From a virus (Duplodnaviria > Caudoviricetes), in IMG/VR virus record IMGVR_UViG_3300037424_000845, positions 1 through 44,312 of that record: a stretch of DNA of 44,312 nucleotides; one strand, 5' to 3'. The notes beneath the pieces were generated by a model. That model was not told the origin of the DNA. It made no database searches and worked only from the letters and a program-made list of their open reading frames with translations. Numbering within the stretch: position 1 is the stretch's first letter; each line of letters begins with the position of its first letter. Positions 4,551 to 40,637 of this stretch are shown piece after piece. The position numbers and the translations under genes are program-made.

Positions 4551-4772
4551 ATGGAGCTTCGAGTCGGGTCCACGCTCCCTGTCTACGGCGGCCCGCGTGA
4601 CGGGGAAACGATGTGCTACCTCGGTGAGAAAACTAGGTGCGTCATCTCATGGAATGGCGTGGAGCATCGCTACAAGGTCTGGAAGCGGGCGTTGCCGTTC
4701 ATCGCTGGCGGGGTCACGACGGTGGGTAATTGCCCGGTATGGGAGTACGACGGGCTGGCCCCCGTCAAATAG
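4551..4772 (+). CDS. Hypothetical protein (GGPRDG motif)
   Basis: AGGAGG RBS; first gene of the rightward arm. Confidence 0.65.
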   Translation: MELRVGSTLPVYGGPRDGETMCYLGEKTRCVISWNGVEHRYKVWKRALPFIAGGVTTVGNCPVWEYDGLAPVK

Positions 4773-4803
4773 TCGCGTGTGCGGCTGACACAGGAGGACG
4801 GAC

Positions 4804-5025
4804 GTGGAGCTGACCAAGGGACAGATGAGGGAGTGCATCCGGGCGCGGGACGAGGTCAAGGCCGCCTATCGGCGCATCGGCCCCGTCATCGAGACGGCCG
4901 CGAACATGGGCGAGGCGACCGAGATGGACGTGCTCGTGCGCACCGAGTTCAAGGCGCTGATCGAGACGCTGAGGGAGTACACCGCGCCGATCGAGGACGC
5001 GATCGAGGCGAGCAAGCGGAAGTAA
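4804..5025 (+). CDS. Hypothetical helical protein
   Basis: AGGAGG RBS; coding-like GC3 pattern. Confidence 0.65.
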   Translation: MELTKGQMRECIRARDEVKAAYRRIGPVIETAANMGEATEMDVLVRTEFKALIETLREYTAPIEDAIEASKRK

Positions 5026-5121
5026 CCACGCATGGCTTCGCCGGTAGCGGGGTCGCGGTCAGGCGATCCGGGAGAGTCTCGGGCCGCCTAAGCCCGCCGC
5101 CGGCGTCTAACGGAGGGTCCA

Positions 5122-5982
5122 ATGGATGAGGTATTCGTGACACAAGAGGCCCCGGCGGTCGGCATGCACGCTGACATCCCCTGGGCCGATTACCACCTGA
5201 TCGACGCCGTGAGTAACTCGCGGCTGAAGGACATGGGGAGGTCACCCGCCTACTGCAAGTACCGGATCGACAACCCCGACCTCGACGACGACACCCCGGC
5301 CAAGAGCGTCGGCAAGGCGCTACACATGGCGATTCTCGAGCCCGAGAGATTCACGCGCGAGGTCATCGGCAAGCCCGATGGGATGAGCTTCGCAACAAAA
5401 GAGGGTAAGGCGTGGCGCGACGACCACCTAGGGATGGTCGTCCTCACGACCGACGACTGGCTGACCGTCCAAGGGATGATCGCTTCGGTCCGCGCGCACC
5501 CCGCGGCGGCGGCGATCCTCCGGCAGTCGACGCTGCGCGAGGCGACGGGGATTTGGCAAGACTCGACGCACGGCCTCACCTGCAAGATGCGCCCCGACCT
5601 CGTGGTCCCGAGCGTCTGCACGCTCGCTGATCTCAAGACCTCGCGGGCGGCTGACCCGTCCGCGTTCCCGCGTGAGATCCACACCCACGGCTACTACCGG
5701 CAGGGCGCGCACTACATCGACGGCGCGCGCGAGCTGGGCCTCACCGTTGACCACTACGTCATCATCGCGGTTCAGAACACTGCACCGTTCGAGTGCTACG
5801 TCTACCGGCTCTCCGAGCTGGACGTCGAAGCCGGGCGAATCCAGAACGCGGTCGCGATGGAGGAGTACTCGCGCTGTCGATCGACGGGCGACTGGCCCGC
5901 CGGGCCGCGCGAGGTCATCGACATCACCATGCCGGTGTGGGCCACGAGTCGGATCTTCGAGACGGCGGGGGAAGAGTCATGA
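5122..5982 (+). CDS. PD-(D/E)XK exonuclease, RecE/exonuclease VIII-like (DUF3799)
   Basis: YH..DAVSNSRLK, GKALHMAILEP, CKMRPD, ADLKT, GYYRQGAHY motifs. Confidence 0.9.
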   Translation: MDEVFVTQEAPAVGMHADIPWADYHLIDAVSNSRLKDMGRSPAYCKYRIDNPDLDDDTPAKSVGKALHMAILEPERFTREVIGKPDGMSFATKEGKAWRDDHLGMVVLTTDDWLTVQGMIASVRAHPAAAAILRQSTLREATGIWQDSTHGLTCKMRPDLVVPSVCTLADLKTSRAADPSAFPREIHTHGYYRQGAHYIDGARELGLTVDHYVIIAVQNTAPFECYVYRLSELDVEAGRIQNAVAMEEYSRCRSTGDWPAGPREVIDITMPVWATSRIFETAGEES

Positions 5983-7118
5983 GTCTCACCCCCATCGACC
6001 GCGCGAAGTACCGAGCCATCGTCGGCTACGTGCAGCCGTCCGTCCCGCGCGCCGGCAAGATCCGGCTCGGTATCAAGGTCGAGAACGACAAGGGGTCCGT
6101 TCACCCGAAAGACTGCCCGTACTTCGTGTTCGACTCCGACCTCGAAGGACGCGACCGGATCACGGACGTGTACGGCGACAAGCCGACTCGCCTCGTCGTC
6201 ATGTTCCTATCAGACGACATCGGCGAAATCTTCCCGCACGCGTACAAGAGTTACCGCAAGGGACTCGGCCTGTGGTGCAAGGGCAACGGCTCTACCGCGA
6301 TGCGCGCGAAGCTGACGAAGGACGGCGCGCGGGATGTGTTCGAGCGCGAAGAGGTCGGCGGCGCGCCGATCACCGTGGAGCGTGCATGCCCGTGTGAATT
6401 GCTGACGTTGAAGAAATGTAAACCGATCGGGAATCTCATGGTCATCCTGCCGGAGATCGGGTTCGCCGCGTATCAGATCGACACCGGCTCTTTGCACAGC
6501 TTCCACAACATCGTGAACTCGCTTCGCCACTATCAAGGGTTCTTCGGCTCGCTCAAGGGCGTGCTGTTTTCGCTCGAGCGTCGCGAGATCGTCACGCACG
6601 GCAGCGGGCGCGAAGAGAAGCATTGGCCCCTCGTGCTCACGACGCTTGGCGCGAAGGAGTACGCGGAACGACGGGCGCGGGTCCACGCGATGCTCTCGGA
6701 GTACGTGACGGTACTCGGTCGTGACATCGCGGGAGATGCGACGGCGGCGGCGCTGCTTGGTACATCAACCGAGCCCGTCGTCTACGAAGGCGCCCCGCAT
6801 CAAGACATCGGATCGCTCGAAGTCGAGCACGACATCATGAGAGATGACGTGGTCGACGACGACGACACACCGGGTGTTTCAACCGAGACGCTCAATGAGC
6901 AGCTCCAGCACGCGACGGCCCCGGAGTCGCATGTCGATCATGACCGAAACGCCTTGCTCGTCGAGCTGTCAGACGACGCGATGCGCGCCGACACGAAGCG
7001 GGTTGCGAACAAGATCGGTATCAACCTCGCGCGGTGGGCCGACTTCAAGAACTTGCCGACCTCCGACCTGCAACGGATCTCGGATCACATCAGAAAGGAA
7101 CAGGGCGAATCGTCCTAG
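5979..7118 (+). CDS. Gp3-like / recombination directionality factor-like protein, probable partner of the exonuclease
   Basis: GKIRLGIK..HPKD.PYFV, LWCKGNG, CPCE..KCKPIGNL motifs; ATGA-coupled to the exonuclease. Confidence 0.7.
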   Translation: MSLTPIDRAKYRAIVGYVQPSVPRAGKIRLGIKVENDKGSVHPKDCPYFVFDSDLEGRDRITDVYGDKPTRLVVMFLSDDIGEIFPHAYKSYRKGLGLWCKGNGSTAMRAKLTKDGARDVFEREEVGGAPITVERACPCELLTLKKCKPIGNLMVILPEIGFAAYQIDTGSLHSFHNIVNSLRHYQGFFGSLKGVLFSLERREIVTHGSGREEKHWPLVLTTLGAKEYAERRARVHAMLSEYVTVLGRDIAGDATAAALLGTSTEPVVYEGAPHQDIGSLEVEHDIMRDDVVDDDDTPGVSTETLNEQLQHATAPESHVDHDRNALLVELSDDAMRADTKRVANKIGINLARWADFKNLPTSDLQRISDHIRKEQGESS

Positions 7119-11880: not shown

Positions 11881-12146
11881 GCAAGCGGAAGATCGAGTGG
11901 ACGGATGATGAGATCGCCGCCTATGACCCGTTCGCAGACGACAAAGGCGACGGAGGGTGGCATTGCGTGAAATCGCGAGTGGTGACGACGCGAGTGCCAC
12001 ATACGTGCTGCGTGAGTTACGACGAGCACTCGATAGACGTAGGACCGCGTGCTGTCATCTACTCCGCAGTCTGCCGATACGAAGGATTTCGCCGTTTTTA
12101 CATTTGTTGCGATTGCATCCTGGCTTGGTACGGGGAGACGCGGTGA
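11877..12146 (+). CDS. Hypothetical Cys-rich protein
   Basis: TTRVPHTCC...YICCDC; GTGA coupling. Confidence 0.55.
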   Translation: MSKRKIEWTDDEIAAYDPFADDKGDGGWHCVKSRVVTTRVPHTCCVSYDEHSIDVGPRAVIYSAVCRYEGFRRFYICCDCILAWYGETR

Positions 12147-12210
12147 TGGCCAAGATCAAGATCGAGTTGCTCGACGGACGGACGTGGGACGAGATGCCGG
12201 GGGGCCGCGC

Positions 12211-13239
12211 GTGAAAGCTCCCTTCCCGTGGTTCGGCGGCAAGCGCAAAGTCGCGCACGAGGTGTGGCGACGCTTCGGCGATGTCGATGTCTACGCCGAG
12301 CCTTTCGCGGGATCGCTGGCCGTGCTACTCGGGCGACCGACGACACACACACGGCGCGTCGAGACGGTCAACGACCTCGATGGCTTCGTGAGCAACGCCT
12401 GGCGCGCGATCCTGCACGACCCGACCCAGACGGCGGGATGGGCCTCGTGGCCCGTGAACGAGTGCGACCTGCACGCCCGACACGCATGGCTGACCGAGCG
12501 CCGAGCCGATCTACGCGCGCGTCTTGAAGGCGATCCGGACTACTACGACGCGAAGATCGCGGGATGGTGGCTGTGGTGTATCGCGTGCTGGATCGGCGGC
12601 GAGATGTGCAGCGGCAAAGGGCCGTGGCATCGCGTCGAAGTCGCGCCGGGCGACTGGCAGCTCATCCGCGATGATCGGGAGGGGGATGGGGTGACGCGGA
12701 AACTGATCCAACTTGGCAACGCGGGGAGAGGGGTGAATCGGGGACGGATTTATCTTGCCAGCGCAGGGCAAGGGGTCATAGCGGGACGCGATGGGCTTGT
12801 TGATTGGCTGACCGATCTATCGTGCAGGCTGAGACGCGTGCGCGTCGCGTGTGGCGATTGGGCGCGCGTCGTCACGCCGTCGGCAATGGCACCGGCTGTT
12901 GGCGGCGTGCGAGGGATCTTCCTCGATCCGCCCTACTCTGCCGAAGCGGGGCGAGACTCGCGCATCTACTCATCCGAGTCGCTGACTGTCGCGCATGATG
13001 TCCTGGAGTGGTGCAAGACCGCGCCGACCGAGTACCGAATCGCGCTGTGTGGCTATGAAGACGAGGGACACGAGGACCTCGAAGCGATGGGATGGGACGT
13101 GTACAAGTGGTGCGCGAATGGCGGGATGTCAAACGAGCGTGGCAAAGGATCGGGCGGGAACAACGAGCGGGAGCGAATCTGGTTCTCGCCCGCCTGTATC
13201 GACTCGCACGTACAGCGGGGGATCTTTGATGGTTACTGA
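12211..13239 (+). CDS. DNA adenine methyltransferase, D12/Dam class
   Basis: PFPWFGGK, YAEPFAGSLAV, ETVNDLD and catalytic FLDPPY motifs. Confidence 0.92.
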   Translation: MKAPFPWFGGKRKVAHEVWRRFGDVDVYAEPFAGSLAVLLGRPTTHTRRVETVNDLDGFVSNAWRAILHDPTQTAGWASWPVNECDLHARHAWLTERRADLRARLEGDPDYYDAKIAGWWLWCIACWIGGEMCSGKGPWHRVEVAPGDWQLIRDDREGDGVTRKLIQLGNAGRGVNRGRIYLASAGQGVIAGRDGLVDWLTDLSCRLRRVRVACGDWARVVTPSAMAPAVGGVRGIFLDPPYSAEAGRDSRIYSSESLTVAHDVLEWCKTAPTEYRIALCGYEDEGHEDLEAMGWDVYKWCANGGMSNERGKGSGGNNERERIWFSPACIDSHVQRGIFDGY

Positions 13240-15437: not shown

Positions 15438-15769
15438 GTGTCCACCTCCGATCCCGCTGCCATCGCCCTTACCAGCTCCGCGATGGCAATCTCCCGCGTC
15501 GGCCCCGACCCAGACAGCCCCGGAGTCGAGTCTGAGGTAGCCACAAATCGATTGGCATCGTTGGACCACCTGACGGTCACATCGCAGGACTGCCACGGGG
15601 TCATCGGTAGAAGTTGGTCGCCGGAATCAACGATGATCCGTTGCGCGCAGAACGGGCAAAACACGAACTCAGCATCGATCGGCGCCGCACCGTAAAACTG
15701 ATGGACCTTCCCGCATGACGTTGTCCACCAGTTTTCTGGCGGCGTTCCTGGCCCCCACATACATGTCAT
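15434..15769 (-). CDS. Zinc-ribbon plus HicB-like domain protein
   Basis: TCMW..WWTTSCG..FCPFC followed by VTVRWS...FVATSDSTPGLSGSGPTREIAIAEL, a HicB N-terminal-like pattern. Confidence 0.6.
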   Translation of the reverse strand: MTCMWGPGTPPENWWTTSCGKVHQFYGAAPIDAEFVFCPFCAQRIIVDSGDQLLPMTPWQSCDVTVRWSNDANRFVATSDSTPGLSGSGPTREIAIAELVRAMAAGSEVDT

Positions 15770-16098
15770 GACGAGCCCCCCGCGACGAACGGCCGGTTGG
15801 TCTTGTGCGCTACACGCACCTTGTCGATTGCCTTGCCGGCCGCATGGACCGTGTTGCCCCCGACCCCGGCAAGCCCAGCCATGGCGAGCGACCCCAGAAG
15901 CTCGGGCCAGAGCTGACCAAGGAGACCGCCTAGAAGGCCCAGTACCCACGGCACGCGATCATGTGGGATCCACGGCACGCGCATCAACAGCTTTCCCAGC
16001 CCAGCCGCGATGAACGGAATCGCAATCAGGAGCACCTGGCGGAGCGCCGCCATGATGTCCAGCCCCGGGTCGGGGCTCACTGTGAGCGTGTCGATCAT
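15766..16098 (-). CDS. Putative holin
   Basis: 2-3 hydrophobic segments, basic C-terminus, located in the lysis cassette. Confidence 0.7.
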   Translation of the reverse strand: MIDTLTVSPDPGLDIMAALRQVLLIAIPFIAAGLGKLLMRVPWIPHDRVPWVLGLLGGLLGQLWPELLGSLAMAGLAGVGGNTVHAAGKAIDKVRVAHKTNRPFVAGGSS

Positions 16099-16454
16099 GG
16101 TGTCACCTCAATGTGTGGGGCCAGTGCGGCGACGATCGCCACGAAGAGCACATCCTTGGCCTTCTCCTGATCAGGGAGCGCGTAGTACGGCACGATTGAT
16201 GGATGTGTTTTTGCGTCATCGTCCAGCACGTCACCGCGACGCCAGCCATCTTCAAACATGCGGCTGATCCAATCCGCGTGGCTACGCTCAGGAGTCATAG
16301 TTCCGTGCGCGAGCGCGGCCTTGACGCCATCGACGACAACGTCCCGATCGTACTCCAGCGCGTCATCGTAAGGTACACGGGCGGGGTCCCCGATCGTCGT
16401 TCCGTAGGCGCGGAGAGCTTCGTACGCTACCCGCGCGATTCCGTCAATCGTCAT
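16095..16454 (-). CDS. RyR-domain phage protein
   Basis: IARVAYEA.RAY, SHADW...GWRRG...KTHPSIVPY..LP..EKAKD signature. Confidence 0.85.
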   Translation of the reverse strand: MTIDGIARVAYEALRAYGTTIGDPARVPYDDALEYDRDVVVDGVKAALAHGTMTPERSHADWISRMFEDGWRRGDVLDDDAKTHPSIVPYYALPDQEKAKDVLFVAIVAALAPHIEVTP

Positions 16455-16942
16455 GTCGTACCTCCAATCGATTCGATCGCTTCAACGACGATCGCTGTGC
16501 ATTCCCGAGCGAGTGAGACGAGCTCGGCGTGCGCCCCCGGCGTGACCCGCAGACACCCGTGCGTGACCCGTAGGCGGCCCTTGCGAAGATCCCCGCTATG
16601 GATGGCCAGCCCCCGCCTACCGTTGCGATACGCCTCTAGCGCGTCTCCTGAGACGGGCGAGAGCATGACCGGCGGCTCGGCCCCGTAGGAGCGCAGCGGA
16701 TACCACAGCTCGCTCGACACCACGCCACGGTAGGTGCCGAGCGGAAAGTCGCCGAACGGGTTGCGCGGGTCCCGTGACGGGTTGCCGGCGGCCCTCGCGC
16801 GCGTGTTGTCCGACTTTCCGAGACACGCGCCGAGGTCTACTTTTTCGCGGGCGGGCTCGCCGCCTTCCGGCTGGAAGGTCGCCCGGATCGTCCCGGCGCG
16901 GAACCGGTCACGAGGGAGCGCGATGTGAACCGTCATGATCAC
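16451..16942 (-). CDS. L,D-transpeptidase-family (YkuD/Tlde1-like) protein, putative endolysin
   Basis: GDFPLGTY and GLAIHSG...THGCLRV (HxG-x-GC catalytic motif); located just upstream of the RyR and holin genes. Confidence 0.75.
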   Translation of the reverse strand: MIMTVHIALPRDRFRAGTIRATFQPEGGEPAREKVDLGACLGKSDNTRARAAGNPSRDPRNPFGDFPLGTYRGVVSSELWYPLRSYGAEPPVMLSPVSGDALEAYRNGRRGLAIHSGDLRKGRLRVTHGCLRVTPGAHAELVSLARECTAIVVEAIESIGGTT

Positions 16943-17256
16943 TTGACATGCTCGTCATCATTCGCGACCACCTCATTCATCCGTCGGTACGTGTCGACCG
17001 CCAGTGAGGCGGTCACGGGGACCCACACGCTGGGGGTCAGTTCGAGCTGCATCGGATATCGGATGTACTGCCGCCCGTCGATCACGACCAGCGAGACGAG
17101 TTCCGCCGGCGACTCTACTTTGACGACGATCTGCGCTTTGACCGCCTCGGCCATCGCAGCGGGCGGAGGGGTTAGTCTGTCGATCATCGACTGCGCAGCC
17201 ATCGCAATCACAGCAGCACATGCCAATGCAATGACAAATGCTTGGCCCTTATTCAT
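16939..17256 (-). CDS. Membrane-anchored or exported protein of the lysis region
   Basis: N-terminal hydrophobic segment AFVIALACAAVIAMAA. Confidence 0.6.
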   Translation of the reverse strand: MNKGQAFVIALACAAVIAMAAQSMIDRLTPPPAAMAEAVKAQIVVKVESPAELVSLVVIDGRQYIRYPMQLELTPSVWVPVTASLAVDTYRRMNEVVANDDEHVK

Positions 17257-17500
17257 TCCGTCTCCCTTCGAGGCGCGCGACGCGCTCCTTGACTCCAGAG
17301 ATTTCGTCGCCCTGTTGCTGGGATCTCACCGCCATCGTCTGTGACATCTCCGATATTGTCTCCGAGAGGCGCTCTACCTCGGCCGTCATGCGCCCGAACT
17401 TCGCTGCGAGGACCAGAGCCGAAATGAAGAGGGACAACGCGATCGAAGCAGCTCCAATCCAGTTGATGTTAAGCCCCCGGTGCGGGCGCTCTTCGGCCAT
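17249..17500 (-). CDS. Single-TM coiled-coil protein (holin/antiholin-like)
   Basis: WIGAASIALSLFISALVLA TM helix, then coiled coil ending ERVARLEG. Confidence 0.65.
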   Translation of the reverse strand: MAEERPHRGLNINWIGAASIALSLFISALVLAAKFGRMTAEVERLSETISEMSQTMAVRSQQQGDEISGVKERVARLEGRRNE

Positions 17501-17580: not shown

Positions 17581-20226
17581 TTAGTCGTTGTCGATCGCCC
17601 ACGCGGACGCTGCGTCCGGAACCGTCACGTCTCGAAGCGTTGTAAACTCCCACACGGCCGGAATGCGCATATCGGTGAACTCCCACCGGGTCATCGCCCC
17701 GATCGGTACAACCTCACTGGAGCGATAGAGATCGAACTGGGCGATTCCGTTGATGTCGGTGCGCCCGGTCAGCTTGCCGAGCGCGACCGACCCGGATCCC
17801 GCCGTCACACCCCTGCCTTGCCACGTGACCACGACCTCGATCGAGTCGATACCGACACCTTCGCCCGTGACGGCTTGCCACCCCATGATGCAATGATCGG
17901 GTTCAAGGGCCTGGTCTAGCTCGATCGCGGTGAGCGCGATTGTCTCGGTCCAAGGCGGCTGATCGATCCTTCGGATGGTCCCGGTATCGGTCCCATACTC
18001 GCCGGGTCGCCACGCACGGTAGTAGTACGACGCTCCGAGTTCGATGTTCGTCTCGCACGTCCCTGCGACCCCCGTCATGAGCCAGTCGTGAAGGCTCGTG
18101 TTCAGCGCGTCCGTGAACAGCTTCACGGTTGCGTTCTGGACTGTCGCGGAGGTTGCGGCGTCCGTGACGGTGATGGTGAGCGGGTCCCCGTCCGTGCCTG
18201 TGACCCACTCGTTGACCTGCTCGGTGAGCGTGACAGTCCCGACGGCGCGCACGGAGTCGACTGCGGTAACGGCGACGACAGCCGCTATTTCTTCGGCCGT
18301 TGGCACATCCTCAAACTCTAGAGCCATATTCACCGAGAGATCGGCAATGTCAAGGCTCAGCCCAATCGACATGTCACTCAGGGAGGCGACTTCGTCGTCG
18401 AGTTGAAGATCGACTGCACTAGCGATCATCTCGGCAGAGACTGCCGTCATGTCCTGGATGACTTCAGGCGTAGTCGATCCGCCCATGTAGACCGACCATG
18501 CGCCCGTCGCGCTCCCGATTTGCGCCTCGTCGATATCCGCGATCCACGCGCGATCGCGCCACTGCGAAACCGCAAGGTCTCGTCGCGTGTCGCCTTCGGA
18601 CCCGTCGGGATGCCACCACTCGATGCGCACAGAGTCTGGATCATCTCCAGTAACGGAGAGGCTGAATGATGGGCAGCCGAAGCACGGAACTGCGCCGATG
18701 CTTCGGCCATCAAGCCCGGCTCCGACAAGAGGAGACACGATCGTCGGTGCGAGCGTCGGCGTCGCTCCATATGCTACCGAGTCAACAAACGCAGGATTCG
18801 CCCAAATACCGTTAGCGTCGTACCCGAACGCCTGCCACTCGGATAGCTCATCCACGGGTTGGGCTGATTGGCTCTGATCCAACCAATATTTGTACCCATC
18901 TCGGTCGTGCCACAGATTGTAATCCCACACGCTCGATGAGACGGTCGCTTCGATCTGCGCTCCGGGGTGAGTGCCGTCTCCCTCGTTCCATCCCGTCGAC
19001 TCCGCGAAGATGTTTCCGAGGATGTAAAACGGCCCAGCCGTGCTGCCGCCCGGCAGGGAACCCTCGTTGAGAATGATGCCCATGTCGGAGTAGTGGTATA
19101 GGGTGTTATGGACGAACCAGGTGTTTACGCCAGTCAACGTCACTCCGTCGTCTCCGCCTCTCCAGCACAAGTTGTCGCGAAGAATGCAGTTGGTCGGGAC
19201 CGGATGGTCCAGGCTCGGGTTCGACGTGTGCAACCAGATGAACTCGTCCATCACATCGTGAATGACGTTGTTTCGGACAATGAGCCCCTGTCCGGCGTAG
19301 CACATCCCGTGGTCGAAACCCGAGACCACATTGCGCTCGACGATCCCGCCGTAGACCTCGGGCCGGTGCATCCACAATCCGTCGCCGTGCGATCCGTCGG
19401 GCTCACCGAAGTTCGTCTCTCCTGAAAGGATCTCCCACCAGATCTTGCGTCGGGTCATCGTGTTGTCACCGACATACAGACCATGATGGCGCGCGGTGAC
19501 CAAGGCGTCATTGTTGGAGTCGAGAAAGTCGCATCGCGAAACTGTCACGCTGTCGATGTAATCCGTGTAGGGCGACGTGGAAAAGGACGAAAACACGATC
19601 GGACACGATTGCTGCTTTCCGCGCGGCTCGGGAAAGAGCGGGTCGTCGCTGAAGAACTCCAGTCCATCGAACAGGAACCCCGTGATTGATGTTCCGTCCC
19701 CGTACTTGTTCTCGACGTATAAGACGGGATCGTTTGACACCGACGAAAGCGTGTCCTGATCGTGCCAGTTGACGAACTGAATACGACCGCCATTGACCTT
19801 GCCGATGATCGCCCATCGCTCGCGCTTGCTCGATTGCGACTGCCAGATGATCGCGGTCGCATCGCCTGGAGACGTGACGACCGCACCATCGAATCGGGCC
19901 GTCACCCCCGTATCGGGCAGGATGTATGTCCAGTCGCCCGGGGTCCCTGATTTCGCCGCTGCCGGCTGCGCTTGGGTGGGAACGTCGGTGCTATCCCATA
20001 GCCCGATCCCCGGCTCGCCGTCGATCCCGGCGCAGAGTAGGAGCGTGTCGCCGCTCGCGAGGCTCGACGTGACGATCGCGTACTCCAGCGTCCTCCATGA
20101 GTTCAACTCGGTCAGTGCATCTCCTGAATCTGAACCGTCCGGAGCAAGATACCGGGTCGCCCCCTGGAGCGAGACGAGACCGGCGATCGCGACGACCATC
20201 CATCGTTCTCGGTGTGATGTCATCAT
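17581..20226 (-). CDS. Right-handed parallel beta-helix protein (pectate lyase/depolymerase-like) with putative signal peptide and C-terminal beta-sandwich domains
   Basis: ATRYLAPDGSDSGD..WRTLEYA start of mature region; repeats GGIVERNVV, LIVRNNVIHD, ILRDNLCW, FVHNTLY; DYNLW; ANPAFVD..SPLVGAG..SIGA. Start reassigned by TGATG coupling. Confidence 0.8.
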   Translation of the reverse strand: MMTSHRERWMVVAIAGLVSLQGATRYLAPDGSDSGDALTELNSWRTLEYAIVTSSLASGDTLLLCAGIDGEPGIGLWDSTDVPTQAQPAAAKSGTPGDWTYILPDTGVTARFDGAVVTSPGDATAIIWQSQSSKRERWAIIGKVNGGRIQFVNWHDQDTLSSVSNDPVLYVENKYGDGTSITGFLFDGLEFFSDDPLFPEPRGKQQSCPIVFSSFSTSPYTDYIDSVTVSRCDFLDSNNDALVTARHHGLYVGDNTMTRRKIWWEILSGETNFGEPDGSHGDGLWMHRPEVYGGIVERNVVSGFDHGMCYAGQGLIVRNNVIHDVMDEFIWLHTSNPSLDHPVPTNCILRDNLCWRGGDDGVTLTGVNTWFVHNTLYHYSDMGIILNEGSLPGGSTAGPFYILGNIFAESTGWNEGDGTHPGAQIEATVSSSVWDYNLWHDRDGYKYWLDQSQSAQPVDELSEWQAFGYDANGIWANPAFVDSVAYGATPTLAPTIVSPLVGAGLDGRSIGAVPCFGCPSFSLSVTGDDPDSVRIEWWHPDGSEGDTRRDLAVSQWRDRAWIADIDEAQIGSATGAWSVYMGGSTTPEVIQDMTAVSAEMIASAVDLQLDDEVASLSDMSIGLSLDIADLSVNMALEFEDVPTAEEIAAVVAVTAVDSVRAVGTVTLTEQVNEWVTGTDGDPLTITVTDAATSATVQNATVKLFTDALNTSLHDWLMTGVAGTCETNIELGASYYYRAWRPGEYGTDTGTIRRIDQPPWTETIALTAIELDQALEPDHCIMGWQAVTGEGVGIDSIEVVVTWQGRGVTAGSGSVALGKLTGRTDINGIAQFDLYRSSEVVPIGAMTRWEFTDMRIPAVWEFTTLRDVTVPDAASAWAIDND

Positions 20227-20873
20227 CAGTAGACCTCCACGAGTACGGCACCGAAAAGCACGCCCTGGCCGGTTCCTGCGTCGCCGGAGTTTCTTTCGAT
20301 CCCGATCCAAAGGAAATCATCGTAATCCGATATCGCACCAGCGACCACGCCCTGGACTTTCTTGCCCACGTACCCGTTGAATGGTGGTGTCGTGGTGACG
20401 GTTTCAGATGTCCACGCATACGTAGACGCGGCAGACGCGCCGTCAGCGCGAAACGTTAGGGAGTGTTCTCCGTCGGTCGCACCGGACGATCCGTAAGCGC
20501 ATGTGATTCGCACGGTCGTACGACCGGCCTTGTGCGCCTTTGGTATGTAGACACCCCACGTCAGGTAATCCGTTTCATCGAATAGCGCGACAGGGCCGAA
20601 GTACGTCCCAACGGAAGAAAACGTCACGCCGAAATTGCGTGTCGCCGCCGCGTCAAGAGACATGACCAGCGTGTCGGCGCTCGCGCCAAACCCGGCATAG
20701 AGAGTGTCAACCTCTCCGGGTGTGACGGCTCCGGCGCTTGCGATTTCTGCGATCACGTCGGTCCCGAGCTTGTCGAGCGTGACCGAGCCATCTCGGATCT
20801 CTTGGAGATGGGCTGCTCCTGACATGACAAGCGGGATCAACACGATGAGAATTATAGCGATCGACTTCTTCAT
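20226..20873 (-). CDS. Tail-fibre-like protein with N-terminal signal peptide
   Basis: MKKSIAIILIVLIPLVMSGA signal; IRDGSVTLDKL fibre repeat motif; C-terminal beta domain. Confidence 0.7.
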   Translation of the reverse strand: MKKSIAIILIVLIPLVMSGAAHLQEIRDGSVTLDKLGTDVIAEIASAGAVTPGEVDTLYAGFGASADTLVMSLDAAATRNFGVTFSSVGTYFGPVALFDETDYLTWGVYIPKAHKAGRTTVRITCAYGSSGATDGEHSLTFRADGASAASTYAWTSETVTTTPPFNGYVGKKVQGVVAGAISDYDDFLWIGIERNSGDAGTGQGVLFGAVLVEVY

Positions 20874-20881
20874 CGGTCCCC

Positions 20882-23236
20882 CTACCAGATTTTGACGTAG
20901 CCGCCACGGATCATCGTGTCGGTCGTGGCAGCCGCCGTGTCATCCGCGTGGTTCTCATCGCGTTCCAGAACGATGTAACACGAGAAGTCAGTAGACGCCG
21001 CCGATAGTTCAACGCCCGTGAAGTCGAACACGGCCTCGACCGTGGTGTATTCCGTGGACGACATCGTGATGGTTTTCGACTCGGCTGCATATCCCGACGG
21101 CGACGACACGTCCGTCATGGACTTCAGGATCATCCCGAAATTGAGTCGATGAACGTATGCCGTCTCGGTCCCTGCCGCGTCGTGCCATCCGAGAGCAAGG
21201 TGAATCTCGAAGTTGTTGGTATGCCTGCCAAGCAACCGACCGAAACTGAGGAACAGATCCCCGCTATCTGCGTCGTCACCATCGAGGATGTTGAACCGAC
21301 CATCGGACACCGCGTAACTCGTAATGTCCCCCGTCCAGTCATCGGTGTACACATCGATGGGGATGTACAGGGTATCCGCTGACCCATCGACTGACGCCTC
21401 CCGATGAACCCACCCCGACCCCGTGTCGTAGACGAACAGCGAGTTGGTCGTCCCGTCGTAGTAGGCTGCTCCCTGGGCGGCGGACTCATAGCCGGAAGGC
21501 AAATTGATCTGACCAGCCGTTACGTTGACGATCCCGTTGGTCACGTCGATCGCGTTCTTGCCGTCGGCGGCCGTGACTTCGAGGCACTCCCCGTTGTTCG
21601 TCGCGCTTAGGTCGACCATCGGTCCGCTGGCCTGGTTCGCCGTGATCGACACCAACGGTCCAGAGTTCCCAACCGACTGCGAGGACCCATCGTGGTAGAT
21701 GTAGCCGGTTCCCGAGTAGATGGCCGACGTGTTGCCCCAATCCCACTGAAACCCGCTGCCCGTGATGGTGTTCGCGCCGTTGTGGTAGACGTAGAAGGCA
21801 TCGCCCGTGTAGCCGTCCGGCGCGTCAACTCGGTAGCCCTTCGATGCACTACCGGATGCGTCCAGCCCGGCCCGATAGGCCGAGGTGAGCGCGTTGCTTT
21901 CATCGACGGTCGCCCACACAACCCCCGTTGTAGCGGCCCGCGTACCGCCATAGGCGTCGTCGACCAACAACGCGGACTTTGCTCCGGTATGAGCGATGCG
22001 AGCCGTTATCGCGGACGCCAGGTCGCCTTCGATGTACACCGCCGGGTAATCCGCGAGCGTCGGGTAGGTGAACGTCGGCCCCGTTGACGCAAAGAGTCCA
22101 ATCCCTTGCGTCGTTGACTTGAGCGCGGCCAACCCGACCGAGAAATCCCCACGACCCACGGCCGTGATCGCGGTCTGGTTGTCACCCGTCCCGTTCGCAT
22201 CAACCAGTATCCCGTCCGCCCCGTCGTCGGCAGACGTGAGATCGATGCGCAAGAATTCCTCGTCGCCGTCCGCAAACGTCCCACGCATGAACGAGTCATC
22301 GTCGATGAGAGACGGGTCGAGCGTCATGCGGCCCGAGCCCGACACGTCGAGCAGAACGTCCGTGTTGGTCGCGTTGCTCCCGATGAGCTGCAATCCGGTG
22401 CCGCCCGCCGACTGGATCTGCGCCGCCACCCCCGACCCGACATGCTCGGCCTTCAGCGCGACCCCGCTGGCGTCGCTGGCGACAATCTTCGCCCCGATCG
22501 CGCTTGCGCCGGAACTCGACACCGAGACGAGGCGCGTGCCGGCCCCGTCCACGTTCACGCCGGCCGAGGTCGTGTCGGCGTTGGATGCAGAGACGTAGAT
22601 GCCTTCCGCGCTCCCCCCGCTCGAGGTGTCGACGACCCGGAGGCCCGTGGTTCCGGACGCGGAACCGCCAACCGCGAGCGAGACGCCAGCCGACGACGCC
22701 CCGGCGATCCCTGTGACCGCGATCCCGGTCTGAGCGTTTGCCGTCCCCATCGCGACCGTGACGGCGCTTCCGCCGGCCGGGTTGTTTACCGACAGGTCGG
22801 CGTCGAAGCCCGAGGACGCGTTGGGTTCGAGCGCGATCTGCGTGGCCTCACTGATCTTCGCGCCTGTCACGGCGTCGGCCAGAATGTCGTCGGACTGCAC
22901 CGCGTTTTGCGCGTTCGCCGGTCCAATGATGAGGTGCTGCATCGCGGTCTGGGACCCGTTGACATACACGTCGTACTCGTCCGTGTTGTTCAGGTCGCCG
23001 TACGCGATCCACCACATTCCGCCGCTCGCGTAGGTCATGTCGTAGGCCGTCACGGCGTCATCGCTCGGCCGAAGGTCGACGTCGTCGGCGGCATCGGTCC
23101 ACGCGCCTGTAGCGTCCGCCACGTGCAAGTAGAACCGGCTTGCCTCGGGGTCGAGCGAGGACGCGGAACGGAACGTCAACAGCAAGGCGAGCAGCGCGAG
23201 GCTAACTCGCGACAACGAAATTCTGCCGCACCACAT
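20882..23236 (-). CDS. Tail fibre/adhesin-like beta-solenoid protein with N-terminal signal peptide
   Basis: SRVSLALLALLLTFRSASS signal-like region; ILADAVTGAKI repeat; G/A/S/T-rich solenoid; GAAYYDGTTNSLFVYDTGSGW fibre motif; GAGGAGG RBS. Confidence 0.7.
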   Translation of the reverse strand: MWCGRISLSRVSLALLALLLTFRSASSLDPEASRFYLHVADATGAWTDAADDVDLRPSDDAVTAYDMTYASGGMWWIAYGDLNNTDEYDVYVNGSQTAMQHLIIGPANAQNAVQSDDILADAVTGAKISEATQIALEPNASSGFDADLSVNNPAGGSAVTVAMGTANAQTGIAVTGIAGASSAGVSLAVGGSASGTTGLRVVDTSSGGSAEGIYVSASNADTTSAGVNVDGAGTRLVSVSSSGASAIGAKIVASDASGVALKAEHVGSGVAAQIQSAGGTGLQLIGSNATNTDVLLDVSGSGRMTLDPSLIDDDSFMRGTFADGDEEFLRIDLTSADDGADGILVDANGTGDNQTAITAVGRGDFSVGLAALKSTTQGIGLFASTGPTFTYPTLADYPAVYIEGDLASAITARIAHTGAKSALLVDDAYGGTRAATTGVVWATVDESNALTSAYRAGLDASGSASKGYRVDAPDGYTGDAFYVYHNGANTITGSGFQWDWGNTSAIYSGTGYIYHDGSSQSVGNSGPLVSITANQASGPMVDLSATNNGECLEVTAADGKNAIDVTNGIVNVTAGQINLPSGYESAAQGAAYYDGTTNSLFVYDTGSGWVHREASVDGSADTLYIPIDVYTDDWTGDITSYAVSDGRFNILDGDDADSGDLFLSFGRLLGRHTNNFEIHLALGWHDAAGTETAYVHRLNFGMILKSMTDVSSPSGYAAESKTITMSSTEYTTVEAVFDFTGVELSAASTDFSCYIVLERDENHADDTAAATTDTMIRGGYVKIW

Positions 23237-24173
23237 AGTAGGTAGCCTCCTCCTCGACGTAGAACACCCCGCCGGGGATTGCAATCATGGGCTCCACGCC
23301 GACCAGCTCGAGCTCACCCTGGTAGCCGAGCGCGCGTTGCGCCAGCGTCTCGTACTCAAACCCCGAGACGTGCCGCATCAACATGACGAAACTCGAATTT
23401 GCGTCCGGCTGGACGGCCAGCAGACCTCGGTGGTTCATGATCTTCACGACGAGTTGCGTTTCCGACCCCGTGACCGCCGGGTGAGGGAACCGGACCCGAG
23501 GGACGAACCCGTCTCGCGCGTAGCTCAGGTCGCCATAGGCGGACCGCCACGGCTGGAGTTTCTCCCACGGCTCGAATCGGATCTCAGGAAGCGGGTTGTC
23601 CGGGAACCCGTTCAGCGTCTCGAAGATCCGGTGTAGACGGGGCCGAGCGACAAACACCCGCGCGGTCGCGCTCGGCGTGTGAGACGCCATGAGGTACATC
23701 TTGAGCGTATCGTCGGTCGCGGTGGCGAACGAGGCGATCAACACCACCTGCGTCCACGCCATCTGAGTCAACGCCACGTCGCCGGTGTGGTGCGCCTCGG
23801 TCGTCGTGGTCCCGACGAGCTGCAACCGGAAGTCGGTGATGTCACGGTCCGGGCTCATGACCCAGCACGAGGCGAGGAAGGACTCATCGGTCACGGTCTG
23901 ACCGGTATCGAAGGTCGCGATGGCGTACCCGGTCTCGCTCGCGCTCACGCCGGACACCTCGAGGACGTAGCGGCCCCTTGGCCCGTATGGGTTGAACACA
24001 CGCGCGACGGCTCCATACGCGTCCCCGGCGGCCCAATCCCCGACACTGACCTCGAAGTCGTCATTTGCGCCGACAAGGTTCACGCCGCCAATCAGCCGGA
24101 TCTGCGGCTGGCTGAACGACGAGGGCGCATAGATCAGGTTTCCCGCCGCAACCGTCCACGAGCTGGCCGCCAT
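23202..24173 (-). CDS. Minor tail protein (distal-tail-like, with probable carbohydrate-binding domain)
   Basis: NLV..DDFE...W, ASCWVMS and WTQVVL resemble CBM4/9-type folds; TAATG coupling; position after the hub. Confidence 0.6.
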   Translation of the reverse strand: MAASSWTVAAGNLIYAPSSFSQPQIRLIGGVNLVGANDDFEVSVGDWAAGDAYGAVARVFNPYGPRGRYVLEVSGVSASETGYAIATFDTGQTVTDESFLASCWVMSPDRDITDFRLQLVGTTTTEAHHTGDVALTQMAWTQVVLIASFATATDDTLKMYLMASHTPSATARVFVARPRLHRIFETLNGFPDNPLPEIRFEPWEKLQPWRSAYGDLSYARDGFVPRVRFPHPAVTGSETQLVVKIMNHRGLLAVQPDANSSFVMLMRHVSGFEYETLAQRALGYQGELELVGVEPMIAIPGGVFYVEEEATYYVVRQNFVVAS

Positions 24174-26605
24174 TACACCACCTCCACGGCTTCGAGCGAC
24201 GACTGGAACGACCCGAGGTCGACTTTGCGCGCCGTGACGATTGCGGTTTTGTTGTCCGCGTCGAAGTCCATGAAGACCGGCACGCTGTCGAGCAACTCGA
24301 TGTGCGGGCGGAACGGCCCGTTGATCCGGTAGACGACGGTCCGGGGGCCGGAGCGCGCCAGCACGCGATCGGCCAGCGCCTGGCCGAACGAGGGTTGAAC
24401 CAGCTCGTTCTGAATCTGCACCTTGTTGGCGTCCGGGCTCTCGGTGTCGCCGGACTTGAAGACTTGCCCGCCCCATCCGGTGACAATCACCCCATCCACC
24501 TTTTGGGAAACCGATGCGATCTGAATGTCTGAGGCGCGGGCCAACGACTCCGTGTAGGTGCCGTAATTCATGTCGGACGACCGGACGACCAACCTGGGGG
24601 CAGCAGCCGTGTCGTTCCAGACGAACGCCGCCCATTGATCGACGGCGAGCAACGAAAGCGACATGATGTCGAACGCGCTTCGGTCCCGCATGTCGATCCG
24701 GGCGACGGTCGGCGAGGTGTTGAGGCTCGATTGGACGTAGTAGACGTACTCCTGCTCGTCGATCGTCGGGTCGTACTCGTCGATCGATCCGAGCATGAGG
24801 AACTGATCGGGAAGGCCCCCCAGGCCGTCAGCGGGCTCGCTGAGGCGCACCCTAGAGTTCTTGTAGTCAGGGTCGGGGTTGTTCAGGATGACGCTCCGGT
24901 AGCGCTCGCTGAACGCGCCTGTGGCATCCATCTCAAAGACCCGAACCGCCATGCCAAGCTCAAACGAGGTCTGGGGTCGGGTCGCGTCGCCGTAGGAGCG
25001 GATCAGAACCGCCACCCCGGAGTTGTCCCGGATCGGCACCGCGTCAACAATCACGTCGAGCCGCTGGTCGTAGTCGCCATCCCAGTCCTCGTTTTCCAGC
25101 AACCCAACGCCGTCGGCTGGGCCAAACGACAGGTCGCCGAAACCGAACGACTCGGCACCGAACGTCGTTGGCTTCCCAGCGGTTGGGTCGCCCCCAAAGT
25201 TGTTGACGACATAGCCCCACACCCCGCCATCGTTCCGCCACGTGTTTGCGTAACGGGTCGATAGCAGACCCCACCACACGCCATTTTGAACGTAGTGACA
25301 CGCGCTGAAATTCACGGTTGCTTGCCCGGAAACCGGGTCGTCCGTCTGGATTGACCAATCGGAATGCTTGATGACGGCAGCTCGGTAGCTGCACGGCGCG
25401 CTTTGGGGATCTTCCTTCGTGTAGACGCACATCGTGTAGAGGCCATCGGAGCTTCGGACCGCCCCCAGGATGTGGCGTATTCCGTCGATCGTCACCACGT
25501 TCGATATCCCGGACGGGTCCGGGTGAATTCGGATGTCACCAAGAGCGGGCGGGTTTGCGGTTCCAACATCGGATGTCGTTCGGTGCCAGCCATCCACCGC
25601 CCCAAGTAGCCCCCATGCGTAGACGTACGCGGTAACGCCATCGGACGAGACGGTCAACGAACGAAAGTTCTTCGGCCCGAACACCATCCGGATCGCGGGC
25701 CCGCTCGCGTAGTTCGGCGCAACCCGAAACAGGAACTGCGGCGTGAGGACCCAGAACTGCTCGCCGTAGGTGGCATCGGTCGCCGCAGGCAAGACACTCA
25801 ACCAGTCGTTCGGGATCGTCTGGCCCCACTTGATGCTCACGTCGGCGATGTTCTGATCCGCGATCGACCACTTCAGCACGTAGATCTGATTTCCGCCGAG
25901 CGCCGTGATGCCCCAGAACCAATCATGGGTCCCGTCGGTCTTGAGGAACCACAGCCCGCCGTACGGTCCGCCCATGCCCTGACGATCGTCGGTGACGAGG
26001 CTATCGTAGACCTGCGGGAACACCTGCGAGCCTTCGAGGTCGGCGTGCAAGGTGTAGTCCATCACGATGTCGTTGTGGTCGTCGACCCGATCCAGCATCT
26101 CCTGGCAGATTTGGCGAACCGTCTGGTTGCGCAGCCGGATATGCCGGTCGTCGCCATCCCAGGCAGCGCGGCGGCGCATCAACCCAACGTAGCTGATCGC
26201 GGTGATGAAGAGCGACGTGCCGAACTCGTTCGCGGTGAGTTGCTCCACGTCCACTACCCCGTACCACGCCGTCAGCTCGTCCGTGGCCTCTTGGTGGCCC
26301 GTGATGATCCTGAGCCGCCAGTCGCCCGCCTTGGCGTCATCGAAGATGCCGGGTGCGGTTCGCGATCCGATGAAATATCCGCTTCGGTTGTCCACCGGGA
26401 TCACCACATCGCCGCCGTCGAGCACGCCGTCGGAGGTGCGAACCGCCTCGTCGATCACGGGAGCGGAGCCACGCTCAGACGACGGGATCAAGTACCGAGT
26501 GATGTCACGCACCGCCCCGCCGCTCTTGTGAGTCAAGAGGTAGCGAACGAAGTAGGCCCCGCCGGCGCGGTTCAGGTGCATGTACCAGTCGGTGACGGTT
26601 TTCAC
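24173..26605 (-). CDS. Tail tip/baseplate hub protein
   Basis: 810 aa beta-rich protein downstream of the tape measure; RDITRYL N-terminus and PHIELLD C-terminal hub motif. Confidence 0.65.
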   Translation of the reverse strand: MKTVTDWYMHLNRAGGAYFVRYLLTHKSGGAVRDITRYLIPSSERGSAPVIDEAVRTSDGVLDGGDVVIPVDNRSGYFIGSRTAPGIFDDAKAGDWRLRIITGHQEATDELTAWYGVVDVEQLTANEFGTSLFITAISYVGLMRRRAAWDGDDRHIRLRNQTVRQICQEMLDRVDDHNDIVMDYTLHADLEGSQVFPQVYDSLVTDDRQGMGGPYGGLWFLKTDGTHDWFWGITALGGNQIYVLKWSIADQNIADVSIKWGQTIPNDWLSVLPAATDATYGEQFWVLTPQFLFRVAPNYASGPAIRMVFGPKNFRSLTVSSDGVTAYVYAWGLLGAVDGWHRTTSDVGTANPPALGDIRIHPDPSGISNVVTIDGIRHILGAVRSSDGLYTMCVYTKEDPQSAPCSYRAAVIKHSDWSIQTDDPVSGQATVNFSACHYVQNGVWWGLLSTRYANTWRNDGGVWGYVVNNFGGDPTAGKPTTFGAESFGFGDLSFGPADGVGLLENEDWDGDYDQRLDVIVDAVPIRDNSGVAVLIRSYGDATRPQTSFELGMAVRVFEMDATGAFSERYRSVILNNPDPDYKNSRVRLSEPADGLGGLPDQFLMLGSIDEYDPTIDEQEYVYYVQSSLNTSPTVARIDMRDRSAFDIMSLSLLAVDQWAAFVWNDTAAAPRLVVRSSDMNYGTYTESLARASDIQIASVSQKVDGVIVTGWGGQVFKSGDTESPDANKVQIQNELVQPSFGQALADRVLARSGPRTVVYRINGPFRPHIELLDSVPVFMDFDADNKTAIVTARKVDLGSFQSSLEAVEVV

Positions 26606-27510
26606 TTGAACATCTTCCTGCGTGCCGCCGCGGCAAGTTGCACGTCAGCGTTGTTTGGACCGGGCGTGAAGCACGCTGGAACGATGTCAGCGGCACGATC
26701 GATCTTCGGTGGCAACAGGCCATGGCGCTCGGCTGAGTACATCCTGATCTCCGCCGCCATCTCGGGCGGGATGTTGTAGCAGTTGCGCCCAATGTCGTCG
26801 TAGTTCCAGATGTTGCCGTCAAAGTCGATGTGCGTGACCTCGATTCCGGGGTGAACCCAGACCTTGAATCCGGCCTCGCGCGCCATGTTGCAGAAATAGG
26901 CGTCCTCGCTCGCTCCGCTCTCGTGATGGCGGAACAGCATGGACTCGTGGTTGTTCTCTACCTGCTTGATGTGCTCCCACGTTCCAGCCAAGCACGCCCG
27001 CTTGATCAGCACAGCCGCGAACCCCGATGCCGCTACCGGGTAGGGTGGTTTCGATACCTTCCCGCTCCCATGGCACTGCCAGCACCCGACCTTGGGGGTT
27101 CCGGATGTGTCGGCGTTCATGCACTCCGGGACGGGACAAGGCAAGAACCCCAGGTTGAGCTTGTCAGGGTCCTCGAAGCACCACACGGCGGGCTCAGCTT
27201 TCAGGTCCTTTTTGAACCCGACACCACAGATGCAGTCCTTGTCGGCCTCGATCATCGCGACGAGCGTCTCGGGGCCTACGACCGAATCGTCGTCCATCAT
27301 GAAAAGGTGCGTCCACTCGGTGTTGGGGTCGGTCAGCATACGCGCGGCAAGTAGCGTTCGAGCGGAGTCAATCTCCATCCCGGGGGCGATCATGATTCCG
27401 AACAGGGAATCGGCGGGACGCACCAATCGGTCAAACGCCAACGCGACTTGCATGTCGCATCGGTGCTCGTACCAGGGCAATCCGATCACGATTTTCCGCT
27501 TGAACAACAT
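26602..27510 (-). CDS. Glycosyltransferase, GT-A/GT2-like
   Basis: IVIGLP, SART, HLFMMDDD, GFAAVLIKR and SEDAYFC..AREAGFKVWVH...VTH motifs. Confidence 0.85.
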   Translation of the reverse strand: MLFKRKIVIGLPWYEHRCDMQVALAFDRLVRPADSLFGIMIAPGMEIDSARTLLAARMLTDPNTEWTHLFMMDDDSVVGPETLVAMIEADKDCICGVGFKKDLKAEPAVWCFEDPDKLNLGFLPCPVPECMNADTSGTPKVGCWQCHGSGKVSKPPYPVAASGFAAVLIKRACLAGTWEHIKQVENNHESMLFRHHESGASEDAYFCNMAREAGFKVWVHPGIEVTHIDFDGNIWNYDDIGRNCYNIPPEMAAEIRMYSAERHGLLPPKIDRAADIVPACFTPGPNNADVQLAAAARRKMFK

Positions 27511-39290: not shown

Positions 39291-39530
39291 GCCCCCACCG
39301 TCCAGGGTGTCAAAAGCCCACGTCAGTGTCATAGGGAAGCGACCATTTCGTCGAATGTCAAGTAGATTCGACAGTTGCAAAACCGTGCCAGCGGGAGCGA
39401 GAATCGAGCGAAGCTGTAACGTGTTGCAGTGAATGTGTTTACGGTGACATTTACCCCGAAAATGGGGTGAGGCGTGAAGCGTGTTTTTTGGGGGCCCGCG
39501 AGGGGTTATTTGCCGGCCGTCAGAATATTT

Positions 39531-39588
39531 CTCGACCGCATCGTCGAGACTCGACCATGTCGTCGAGTAGGTCGACCACTACGTCGAC
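39531..39588. repeat. Three tandem 18-bp palindromes (STCGAC-N6-GTCGAS)
   Basis: CTCGAC-cgcatc-GTCGAG (39531), CTCGAC-catgtc-GTCGAG (39550), GTCGAC-cactac-GTCGAC (39571). Confidence 0.75.
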
Positions 39589-40363
39589 CAGAAACTGGCG
39601 GGTGTGGGTATTTTCAGCGATCCAAGTGTGTCAAAAGGTGTCAGTTAACATACTATGGATTATGCGCAGTATTATGCACCAATACGTTGCATCGTTGCGG
39701 GTGTTTGTGCACCGATCCGACCTGTGCAGTGCTCGCATGGTCAGTGTTCAGTGTGGCGTTTCGGTCACACTGTTGCATTCGTGCCACAGTGAACAACTGG
39801 GCAGTGTTGTAGGTATGCGACAGTTGTATTACTCCTCAATCATCTGTCTACCTCGGGACCGAGAAGTGGACCTCACAGTCCGATACTACCGACTCCAGTC
39901 ATGACATGACGCTCCCGTATCCTCGCCCGTGGCGTCGGGATACACCCTCTCTGAGCGTATATGCCATCGTGTCGATGGCTCGTGACGGCGTGTGTGAGAT
40001 CATGTCACTACATGCACACCCCTATAGGGGTGCATAGTGACAGGATCACCACGCAAGCCCATGGTACACAATAGTTTGCGCCAATATCGGGGCACGAAGA
40101 AAAGGTGTCATGACGGGACTTTTTGTTAACTCTATGCACACCATAGACTTAGAGCGTGTTTTTCGGCAATCCTGGCACTCGGGGCGTGAGACTGCCAGCA
40201 TGATCGGGTGTCGGCTTGAGGGTAGGGGAGGGTAAGGGGAGGCGGCATGCCACAGGAAGCCCACAGGACGCGCTACAAGCGATCGGGCTTCGGGCGGCTT
40301 GGGGGCGCGGGCGATGTCCCGATCGTGCGGTGGGCGCGCTCGCTGTGAGTGGAAGTGGGCGGC

Positions 40364-40396
40364 AAAGAGAAACCCCCCGGCTCGTGGCCAGGGGGT
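40364..40396 (-). terminator. Intrinsic terminator of the leftward replication arm
   Basis: Minus strand CCCCCTGGC-CACGA-GCCGGGGG followed by TTTCTCTTT. Confidence 0.6.
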
Positions 40397-40559
40397 GTGT
40401 CTCGGTGAGGGGTTGCGTTCGACCGTTGCCGAGACCGGTCAGGCTACCACAGATCAGGTTCCCCGCAAGAGAGACCGATGATCTCGTCCGTATCGACCGT
40501 CCGGCGCGTCACGAGTCAAGGGGTGGAGTTCGCCCGGATTTCGAGCTCGACTCCACCAC

Positions 40560-40637
40560 CTGTGGCATTTCTGCCACAGTGCAAAGTCGTGCAGTGTTTC
40601 ACGTGAAACATTCAGGCACTGTGGCAGGTTTGCCACA
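40560..40637. repeat. Two TGTGGCA-N4-TGCCACA palindromes flanking parS
   Basis: Copies at 40561-40578 and 40620-40637. Confidence 0.85.
40595..40610. promoter_or_regulatory. parS: parS centromere-like site
   Basis: Exact match to the canonical chromosomal parS palindrome TGTTTCACGTGAAACA, in non-coding DNA. Confidence 0.85.

Follow-up and report, generated by a model that had tools for sequence, protein, structure and literature searches.

Genomic setting of genes A, B and C

The window analysed here is the whole virus record IMGVR_UViG_3300037424_000845 (44,312 bases), a tailed-phage genome in which three consecutive minus-strand genes, called A, B and C below, fill the fibre slot of the late operon and begin with signal-peptide-like leaders. 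The record has 127-base terminal repeats, and a 44,215-base contig from one sequencing run (X1, possibly the source of the record), identical over the 19.9 kb compared, closes the circle. The window is thus a circular 44-kb genome; its CheckV completeness estimate is 61%. Identical pieces were also found in a second sediment study (X2), including one (19995-20432) that spans the B/C junction.

Family matches identify terminase, Mu-like portal and protease, major capsid protein (best matches 24-29% identical) and tape measure genes in the minus-strand late operon. The tape measure is followed by a glycosyltransferase-like gene, an 810-aa gene, a 323-aa gene, A, B, C and genes that probably form a lysis block. 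Judging by gene position and by the usual tail architecture, we take the 810-aa product to be hub-like and the 323-aa product to be distal-tail (Dit)-like. No promoter-like or terminator-like site above chance parts A, B and C from the late operon. The features of the three genes and of the two tail-tip genes upstream are as follows.

17581..20226, minus strand: gene C, 881 aa; leader of about 22 aa, DUF1565/Pel9A-type head, right-handed beta-helix, acidic linker, transthyretin-like domain and C-terminal 110 aa
17932..18180, minus strand: C residues ~683-765, transthyretin/carboxypeptidase-regulatory-like sandwich (weak model)
19057..19551, minus strand: C residues 226-390, Pfam Beta_helix match (PF13229, 26.2 bits against a cut-off of 25.9)
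20226..20873, minus strand: gene B, 215 aa; leader of 20-21 aa, one IRDGSVTLDKL motif and an A-type tip domain
20882..23236, minus strand: gene A, 784 aa, fibre-like; leader, beta domain of about 70 aa, shaft and C-terminal tip domain
20885..21403, minus strand: A residues 612-784, tip domain common to B and three homologues
22937..23146, minus strand: A residues 31-100, small all-beta domain (predicted local distance difference test score, pLDDT, 68-82), the best-conserved mature part
23156..23236, minus strand: A leader, 26-27 aa, MWCGRISLSRVSLALLALLLTFRSASS; its first 35 nucleotides overlap the upstream Dit-like gene
23246..23255, minus strand: A ribosome-binding site GAGGAGGAGG, within Glu codons close to where the Dit-like gene ends
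23202..24173, minus strand: 323-aa Dit-like protein, leaderless, no family match of its own
24173..26605, minus strand: 810-aa tail hub-like protein, leaderless, no family match of its own

Translation starts and leaders

A sequence-only reading of this DNA had described three coupled fibre-slot genes with signal-like N-termini, and all three N-termini and the motifs that it quoted are present on the minus strand. Gene A starts at ATG 23236, with GAGGAGGAGG upstream at a spacing of 9 nucleotides. Gene B starts at ATG 20873 after AGGGGG, 8 bases beyond the A stop, and gene C starts at ATG 20226/20223 after GGAGG, overlapping the B stop (TGATG). That reading had allowed for true starts downstream of the hydrophobic segments; the starts lie upstream of them and are backed by Shine-Dalgarno (SD) sequences, and no downstream in-frame start with an SD match of at least 4 bases occurs in the first 170 codons of A, B or C. 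The C start is called differently by two databases, at Met10 (872 aa) in one and at Met1 (881 aa) in the other. Starting from Met10, C would lose its basic n-region, which is a caveat on its leader.

Leaders were scored with a rule of our own, distinct from SignalP and with thresholds fixed after the sequences were known: a best 10-residue Kyte-Doolittle mean of at least 2.3 beginning by residue 14, a net positive n-region, and small residues at -3/-1. The rule passes four genes among the 26 scored in the window (A, B, C and a 105-aa gene of the lysis block) and none of 4,619 internal pseudo-N-termini of other late proteins; at a threshold of 2.0, 0.76% of these pass. For A, B and C, respectively, the 10-residue means are 2.98, 3.62 and 2.71 and the n-region net charges +2, +2 and +1. 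Cleavage is predicted at SAS|S or ASS|L in A, at SGA|A or GAA|H in B and at LQG|A in C, which has the weakest leader and the weakest cleavage site of the three. The hydrophobic core of A spans about 12 residues and the uncharged stretch of the B leader 18. Mature domains start directly after the predicted cuts. No lipobox cysteine, twin-arginine motif or later membrane span was found in the three proteins, the best 19-residue Kyte-Doolittle means outside the leaders being 1.56 (A), 0.99 (B) and 1.70 (C).

Two possible reasons for exporting A and B were considered and rejected: a need for disulfide bonds, as the proteins are nearly cysteine-free, and N-glycosylation, as neither is enriched in N-x-S/T sequons. 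Mature A has 2 cysteines and B has 1, while the A homologues P0013 and P0018 (see below) have 1 and 0; C and its homologue have 10 and 16.

Domain organisation of the three proteins

The shaft region of A holds one I..DAVT..KI motif followed by long G/A/S/T-rich beta repeats. Its small N-terminal domain (residues 31-100) may be the anchor, since identity to P0013 is 37% over residues 28-130 and falls to 26-29% beyond them, the pattern expected of an anchor with a variable body. Searches for virion-anchor families gave no match to this domain and no N-terminal anchor domain in C, and PF08400 (phage_tail_N) was not found in the genome. Pfam gave nothing at E up to 1 for any of the five A-family members, nor an S74 match in A. 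The YadA C-terminal membrane anchor is absent from the A family and from B, though the same library detects it in the chromosomal locus L003 described below. The monomer model of A has a mean pLDDT of 43. In the Atlas, A and its tip resemble phage proteins that are uncharacterised, all with feature scores below 0.8. A wide fold search of the PDB with A returned generic beta-solenoids only (best Z 8.7, root-mean-square deviation 4.8, 190 residues aligned), and a viral fold search with this weak model was uninformative.

The DAVT-type motif, which had been read as a tail-fibre motif, proved non-specific. A looser form, I..DAVT..K[IL], occurs in nine copies in a chromosomal YadA-anchor protein. 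This Rhodomicrobium gene (L003, from 9710 onward, plus strand) combines a YadA anchor with nine DAVT..K-type repeats, as in a trimeric autotransporter.

B is, judging by its profile match, a short mini-fibre-like paralogue of the A tip. It scores 16.3 bits against the A-family tip profile, where the maximum among shuffled sequences was 10.4 (487 scored of 500). The link is visible by profile only, plain BLAST of the A tip against B giving E 0.59. Pfam returned nothing for B at E 0.1.

C is the parallel beta-helix protein that the sequence-only reading had pointed out, and PF13229 also matches its homologue in the related phage L002 (E 1.5e-13). The DUF1565-type head of C is indicated by a weak PelN match and by structure rows of the Atlas; no solved relative is closer than E 0.023. 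The sandwich near the C-terminus has a Foldseek probability of 1.0 (E 1.7e-3) on a model with a mean pLDDT of 41, and the last 110 residues are conserved. C is a predicted sugar-binding or sugar-cutting spike, any depolymerase activity being suggested by the modelled fold. A Manatee Spring phage record (L004) has a similar head that is leaderless and begins exactly at the predicted cut of C; no gene among the 11 scored in that record passes the leader rule. In the lineage of the window, the leader is thus something added to the domain and kept.

Homologues and a related phage

Word-based homologue searches with A, B and C gave nothing beyond the proteins of the window itself, no relative was confirmed by scans of viral contigs, and among cultured phage records none matched A, C, P0013 or the Dit-like protein. 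An exhaustive search with A gave six matches: A itself, four homologues and one cadherin-repeat match (P0017, E 9e-5), which was dropped. P0018 shares the N-terminus of P0016, and the two are counted as one homologue. P0013 (807 aa, full length) has a clear leader ending ALA|T, and P0016/P0018 a leader that differs from the others and ends ALA|D; in both cases the alignment of the mature part with A begins just past the cut. P0014, whose first residue is a Val lying roughly at the cut site, is probably truncated. Two of the four A homologues therefore support the leader and two leave it open, one of them possibly counting against it.

The gene for P0013 was located on the contig of a related phage, L002. 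Its order is tape measure, a hub-like gene (25% identity), two Dit-like genes (27-28%), the A homologue (28%), a C homologue and lysis genes; B has no counterpart there. The C homologue, of 856 aa and with a repeat that contains two N bases, is 23% identical to C by tblastn and 29% in the alignment. In L002 the A and C homologues pass the leader rule, and the hub-like and Dit-like proteins fail it. As in the window, the ribosome-binding site of the A gene lies within Glu codons at the 3' end of a Dit-like gene, the overlap being 44 nucleotides in L002 against 35 in the window. Homologues lacking the N-terminal segments would have spoken against the leaders, and those with a whole N-terminus (P0013, P0016/P0018 and the L002 C homologue) keep them. 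Export of A, B and C, as previously suggested, is well supported by the starts and by the leaders of these homologues. The idea of a three-protein complex is unsupported, as L002 lacks B. The leader-bearing fibre-slot module is a real, conserved feature of a small uncultured lineage.

The Dit-like gene of L002 is tandemly duplicated (4699-6722, plus strand), and one copy gives a weak match to a GTA head-spike-fibre domain.

Comparison with known systems

Ordinary siphophage side fibres and tailspikes, such as lambda Stf, T5 pb1 and P22 gp9, are leaderless and assembled in the cytoplasm. The genes of the window resemble them in their position after the tail-tip genes, in the layout of A, with a candidate anchor, a shaft and a tip, and in the beta-helix of C, and differ from them in having conserved leaders and no anchor family of PHROG or Pfam.

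A parallel comes from Cellulophaga phage phi18:3 (KC821620.1), in which gp085-087 are annotated "structural protein, experimental MS/MS proteomics" (MS/MS, tandem mass spectrometry) and pass the leader rule; the other nine of the 12 proteins so annotated (bases 27,000-68,000) fail it. Like A, B and C, these are three consecutive large tailed-phage genes with Sec-type leaders and few cysteines. They differ in showing no homology (best BLAST E 0.028), in having Gln after the leaders and in belonging to a different phage family. The record itself does not mention their leaders.

Several published systems share single traits with A, B or C, as far as the available parts of these papers describe them. 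In the flavobacterial phages Ingeline and Nekkels, proteins with pectin lyase and chondroitin/alginate lyase domains carry signal peptides (PMC8776804). They are large, lyase-fold and signal-bearing like C; in the text available they receive a single sentence, unconnected to a fibre slot or to assembly. Bdellovibrio MAT fibres have a signal peptide, a beta-rich domain that is conserved and about 130 aa long, a long shaft and a variable tip, so tail-fibre-like trimers can be exported (PMC10769870). Their layout as described there is like that of A, by description rather than by sequence comparison; MATs are adhesins encoded on the chromosome of a predator, and 13 of the 21 have an S74 chaperone, for which A has no match. 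Phages of Porphyromonas gingivalis encode Q-rule secreted proteins with Sec signals, of unknown function and read as host-surface modifiers (PMC10367356). They are like A, B and C in their signals and, in the part of the paper available, are never described as fibres. Signal peptides have been counted in rumen Bacteroides phages (PMC5723332), and secreted sheath-like proteins have been proposed for archaeal virus egress (PMC11576556). PblA and PblB of a Streptococcus mitis phage are prophage-encoded adhesins displayed on the cell surface; unlike the route considered for A, B and C, they exit through permeabilisation by holin and lysin and not by Sec (PMC2809947). A full-text search of mostly open literature found no paper among the matches listed that describes Sec-exported tail fibres as an assembly route, and the accessible parts of PMC12923769, PMC12309495 and bioRxiv 10.64898/2026.04.10.717836 held nothing further for comparison.

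Proposed assembly route and alternatives

We propose that the host Sec system would export the late proteins A, B and C, that signal peptidase I would cleave them and that they would fold outside the cytoplasm, to dock on the leaderless tail tip once lysis brings the compartments together. The fibres of the particle would be A, with B as a short variant, and C would be the spike. The fibre proteins presumably form trimers, the host would be a diderm, and the Dit-like protein is the likely docking partner. Sec export and cleavage are highly probable, from sequence and conservation. Given export, docking on the virion is somewhat favoured, because these genes fill the fibre slot in two phages, because the coupling of A to the Dit-like gene is kept at 28% identity, and because the genome has no other fibre gene. 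By analogy, phi18:3 gp085-087 point the same way. For the whole reading, export followed by docking on the tail tip at lysis, we would give a probability of roughly 0.47.

A number of observations weigh against it. The phi18:3 proteins are non-homologous to A, B and C and could be co-purified. No known virion-anchor family of PHROG or Pfam matches A, B or C, and the gain in identity over the N-terminal domain of A is not seen against P0018 (29% against 26-34%). P0015, known as a protein record only, has neither leader nor N-terminal domain. The DAVT shaft motif is no proof of a tail fibre, since a YadA-type adhesin encoded on a chromosome is built with it too; C is similar to Pel9A/DUF1565 proteins that bacteria secrete, and both Bacteroidota PTL_trimer proteins and bacterial beta-helix proteins that are secreted are found among the Atlas neighbours. 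With few cysteines and no excess of sequons, A and B offer no visible reason for export. The sequence-only reading had seen no other fibre candidate, which holds in that there is no leaderless fibre gene and fails in that receptor binding could fall instead to the tail-tip proteins of 810 and 323 aa, which are leaderless. The head-spike-fibre match of the L002 Dit-like protein (E 4e-5, under the cut-off) likewise suggests that leaderless parts could adsorb.

The three proteins might be exported and yet never join the particle, acting as free or cell-bound adhesins and polysaccharide-degrading enzymes. They would loosen capsule, sheath or biofilm for egress or spread, or shield the infected cell, and the hub and Dit-like proteins would bind the receptor. 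We regard this as unlikely for the set as a whole, though well short of negligible. It draws on the likeness of C to secreted proteins and its want of a recognised anchor, on the position of the genes beside the lysis block in both phages, on a shaft motif shared with a surface adhesin, and on the analogies of the signal-bearing lyases of flavobacterial phages (PMC8776804) and the sheath-like proteins of archaeal viruses (PMC11576556), as far as those texts are available. Free release suits C better than A, and for C it is as good a reading as docking. Neither a membrane anchor nor an enzyme family is recognised in A or B, and the conserved coupling of A to the Dit-like gene, the lack of another fibre gene and the leader-bearing phi18:3 proteins annotated from virion proteomics all argue for the particle. 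Alternatively, uncleaved or late-cleaved leaders could tether the fibres to the cytoplasmic face of the inner membrane without any crossing. The length of the uncharged stretch in B and the near absence of cysteines from A and B would fit, and T4 baseplates and proheads do assemble at the membrane. By the positive-inside rule, however, a basic n-region with a hydrophobic core puts the C-terminus outside; the core of A is short for a stable anchor, and two homologues have ALA|X sites. Such tethering appears improbable.

A lysogenic-conversion cassette (moron) decorating the lysogen surface is a further alternative, and a very improbable one. An integrase-family protein is encoded in L002, as is a 174-aa protein that is barrel-like and bears a signal, and the GC content at third codon positions of B and C (0.66 and 0.74) is below that of the hub-like and Dit-like genes (0.83-0.85); that of A is 0.81, however, and that of the tape measure itself 0.72. 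In the window, neither a tyrosine integrase nor an HTH_3 repressor was matched and no resolvase lies above the cut-off, and the genes overlap their neighbours with no promoter above chance. Equally improbable is that the leaders are not translated, with true starts downstream, or that A is a frameshift fusion with the Dit-like protein. The Met10 call for C, the overlap of A with the Dit-like gene in both phages and the leaderless P0015 can be cited for it. The strong SD sequences stand at the upstream starts and none downstream, and no X XXY YYZ slippery site occurs in the overlap of the window or of L002, for which the fusion was rejected. In two independent A homologues and one C homologue, moreover, the letters of the leader differ and its character is kept.

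In a broader form of the export-and-docking proposal, which we advance tentatively, a lineage of tailed phages would divide the building of its particle between compartments: heads and tails would arise in the cytoplasm, all fibres and spikes in the periplasm via Sec, and the parts would meet only at lysis. If so, the export route would be independent of disulfide bonds, A and B being nearly cysteine-free, and C would dock through its C-terminal module, the reverse of ordinary tailspikes. To our knowledge, tailed-phage assembly is taken to be wholly cytoplasmic. Signal-bearing phage proteins have already been mentioned in passing in papers; an assembly route via export would be new. Were receptor-binding parts exported first, assembly would include a step at lysis or later, the phage would depend on export and folding factors of its host, which would be possible defence targets, and annotating signal-bearing phage genes as lysogenic cargo would overlook real fibres. 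As its record lists three leader-bearing proteins as structural, phi18:3 is a cultured phage in which the idea is testable.

Probable lysis block and other genes of the window

The genes downstream of C include a fourth signal-like leader.

15766..17500, minus strand: likely lysis block, with an 83-aa membrane protein, a 105-aa protein, a YkuD-like peptidase (E 0.002), a RyR-domain protein and a holin-like membrane protein
16939..17256, minus strand: 105-aa protein of the lysis block with a signal-like leader, no family match

The 105-aa gene sits between the YkuD-like gene and that for the 83-aa membrane protein, whose Rz-like match is weak (E 0.15); the 105-aa product is possibly an atypical spanin part. 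The sole endolysin candidate is the leaderless YkuD-like protein (16451-16942, minus strand), which matches the L,D-transpeptidase fold (E 0.002). A RyR-domain protein (PF02026, E 3e-10) is encoded within the block at 16095-16454, minus strand. In L002, the C homologue is followed by a peptidase-like gene, which matches VanY and DUF5715 weakly and occupies the YkuD-like slot, by a small membrane-protein-like open reading frame and by the gene for the 174-aa signal-bearing protein (12422-12946, plus strand), which closes the late operon. By eye the latter resembles a small outer-membrane beta-barrel; it has no family match and may be a unimolecular spanin or an exclusion protein.

The Cys-rich glycosyltransferase-like gene between the tape measure and hub-like genes (26602-27510, minus strand) matches PF13641 (E 6e-5) and phrog_1574, and a second GT2 gene lies at about 43026-43754. 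No counterpart of either was found in L002 by tblastn. Virion or exported proteins could be targets of their glycosylation. The Mu-like portal (34971-37151, minus strand, 726 aa) has a C-terminal extension that ends in a Cys-rich motif and is reminiscent of a fused minor head protein. A stretch of about 1.2 kb at 39400-40600, upstream of the small terminase gene, has a lower GC content (0.58-0.61) and no convincing gene, and is likely a control region. Finally, a D12-class adenine methyltransferase-like gene (PF02086) was mapped to 12049-13239 on the plus strand.

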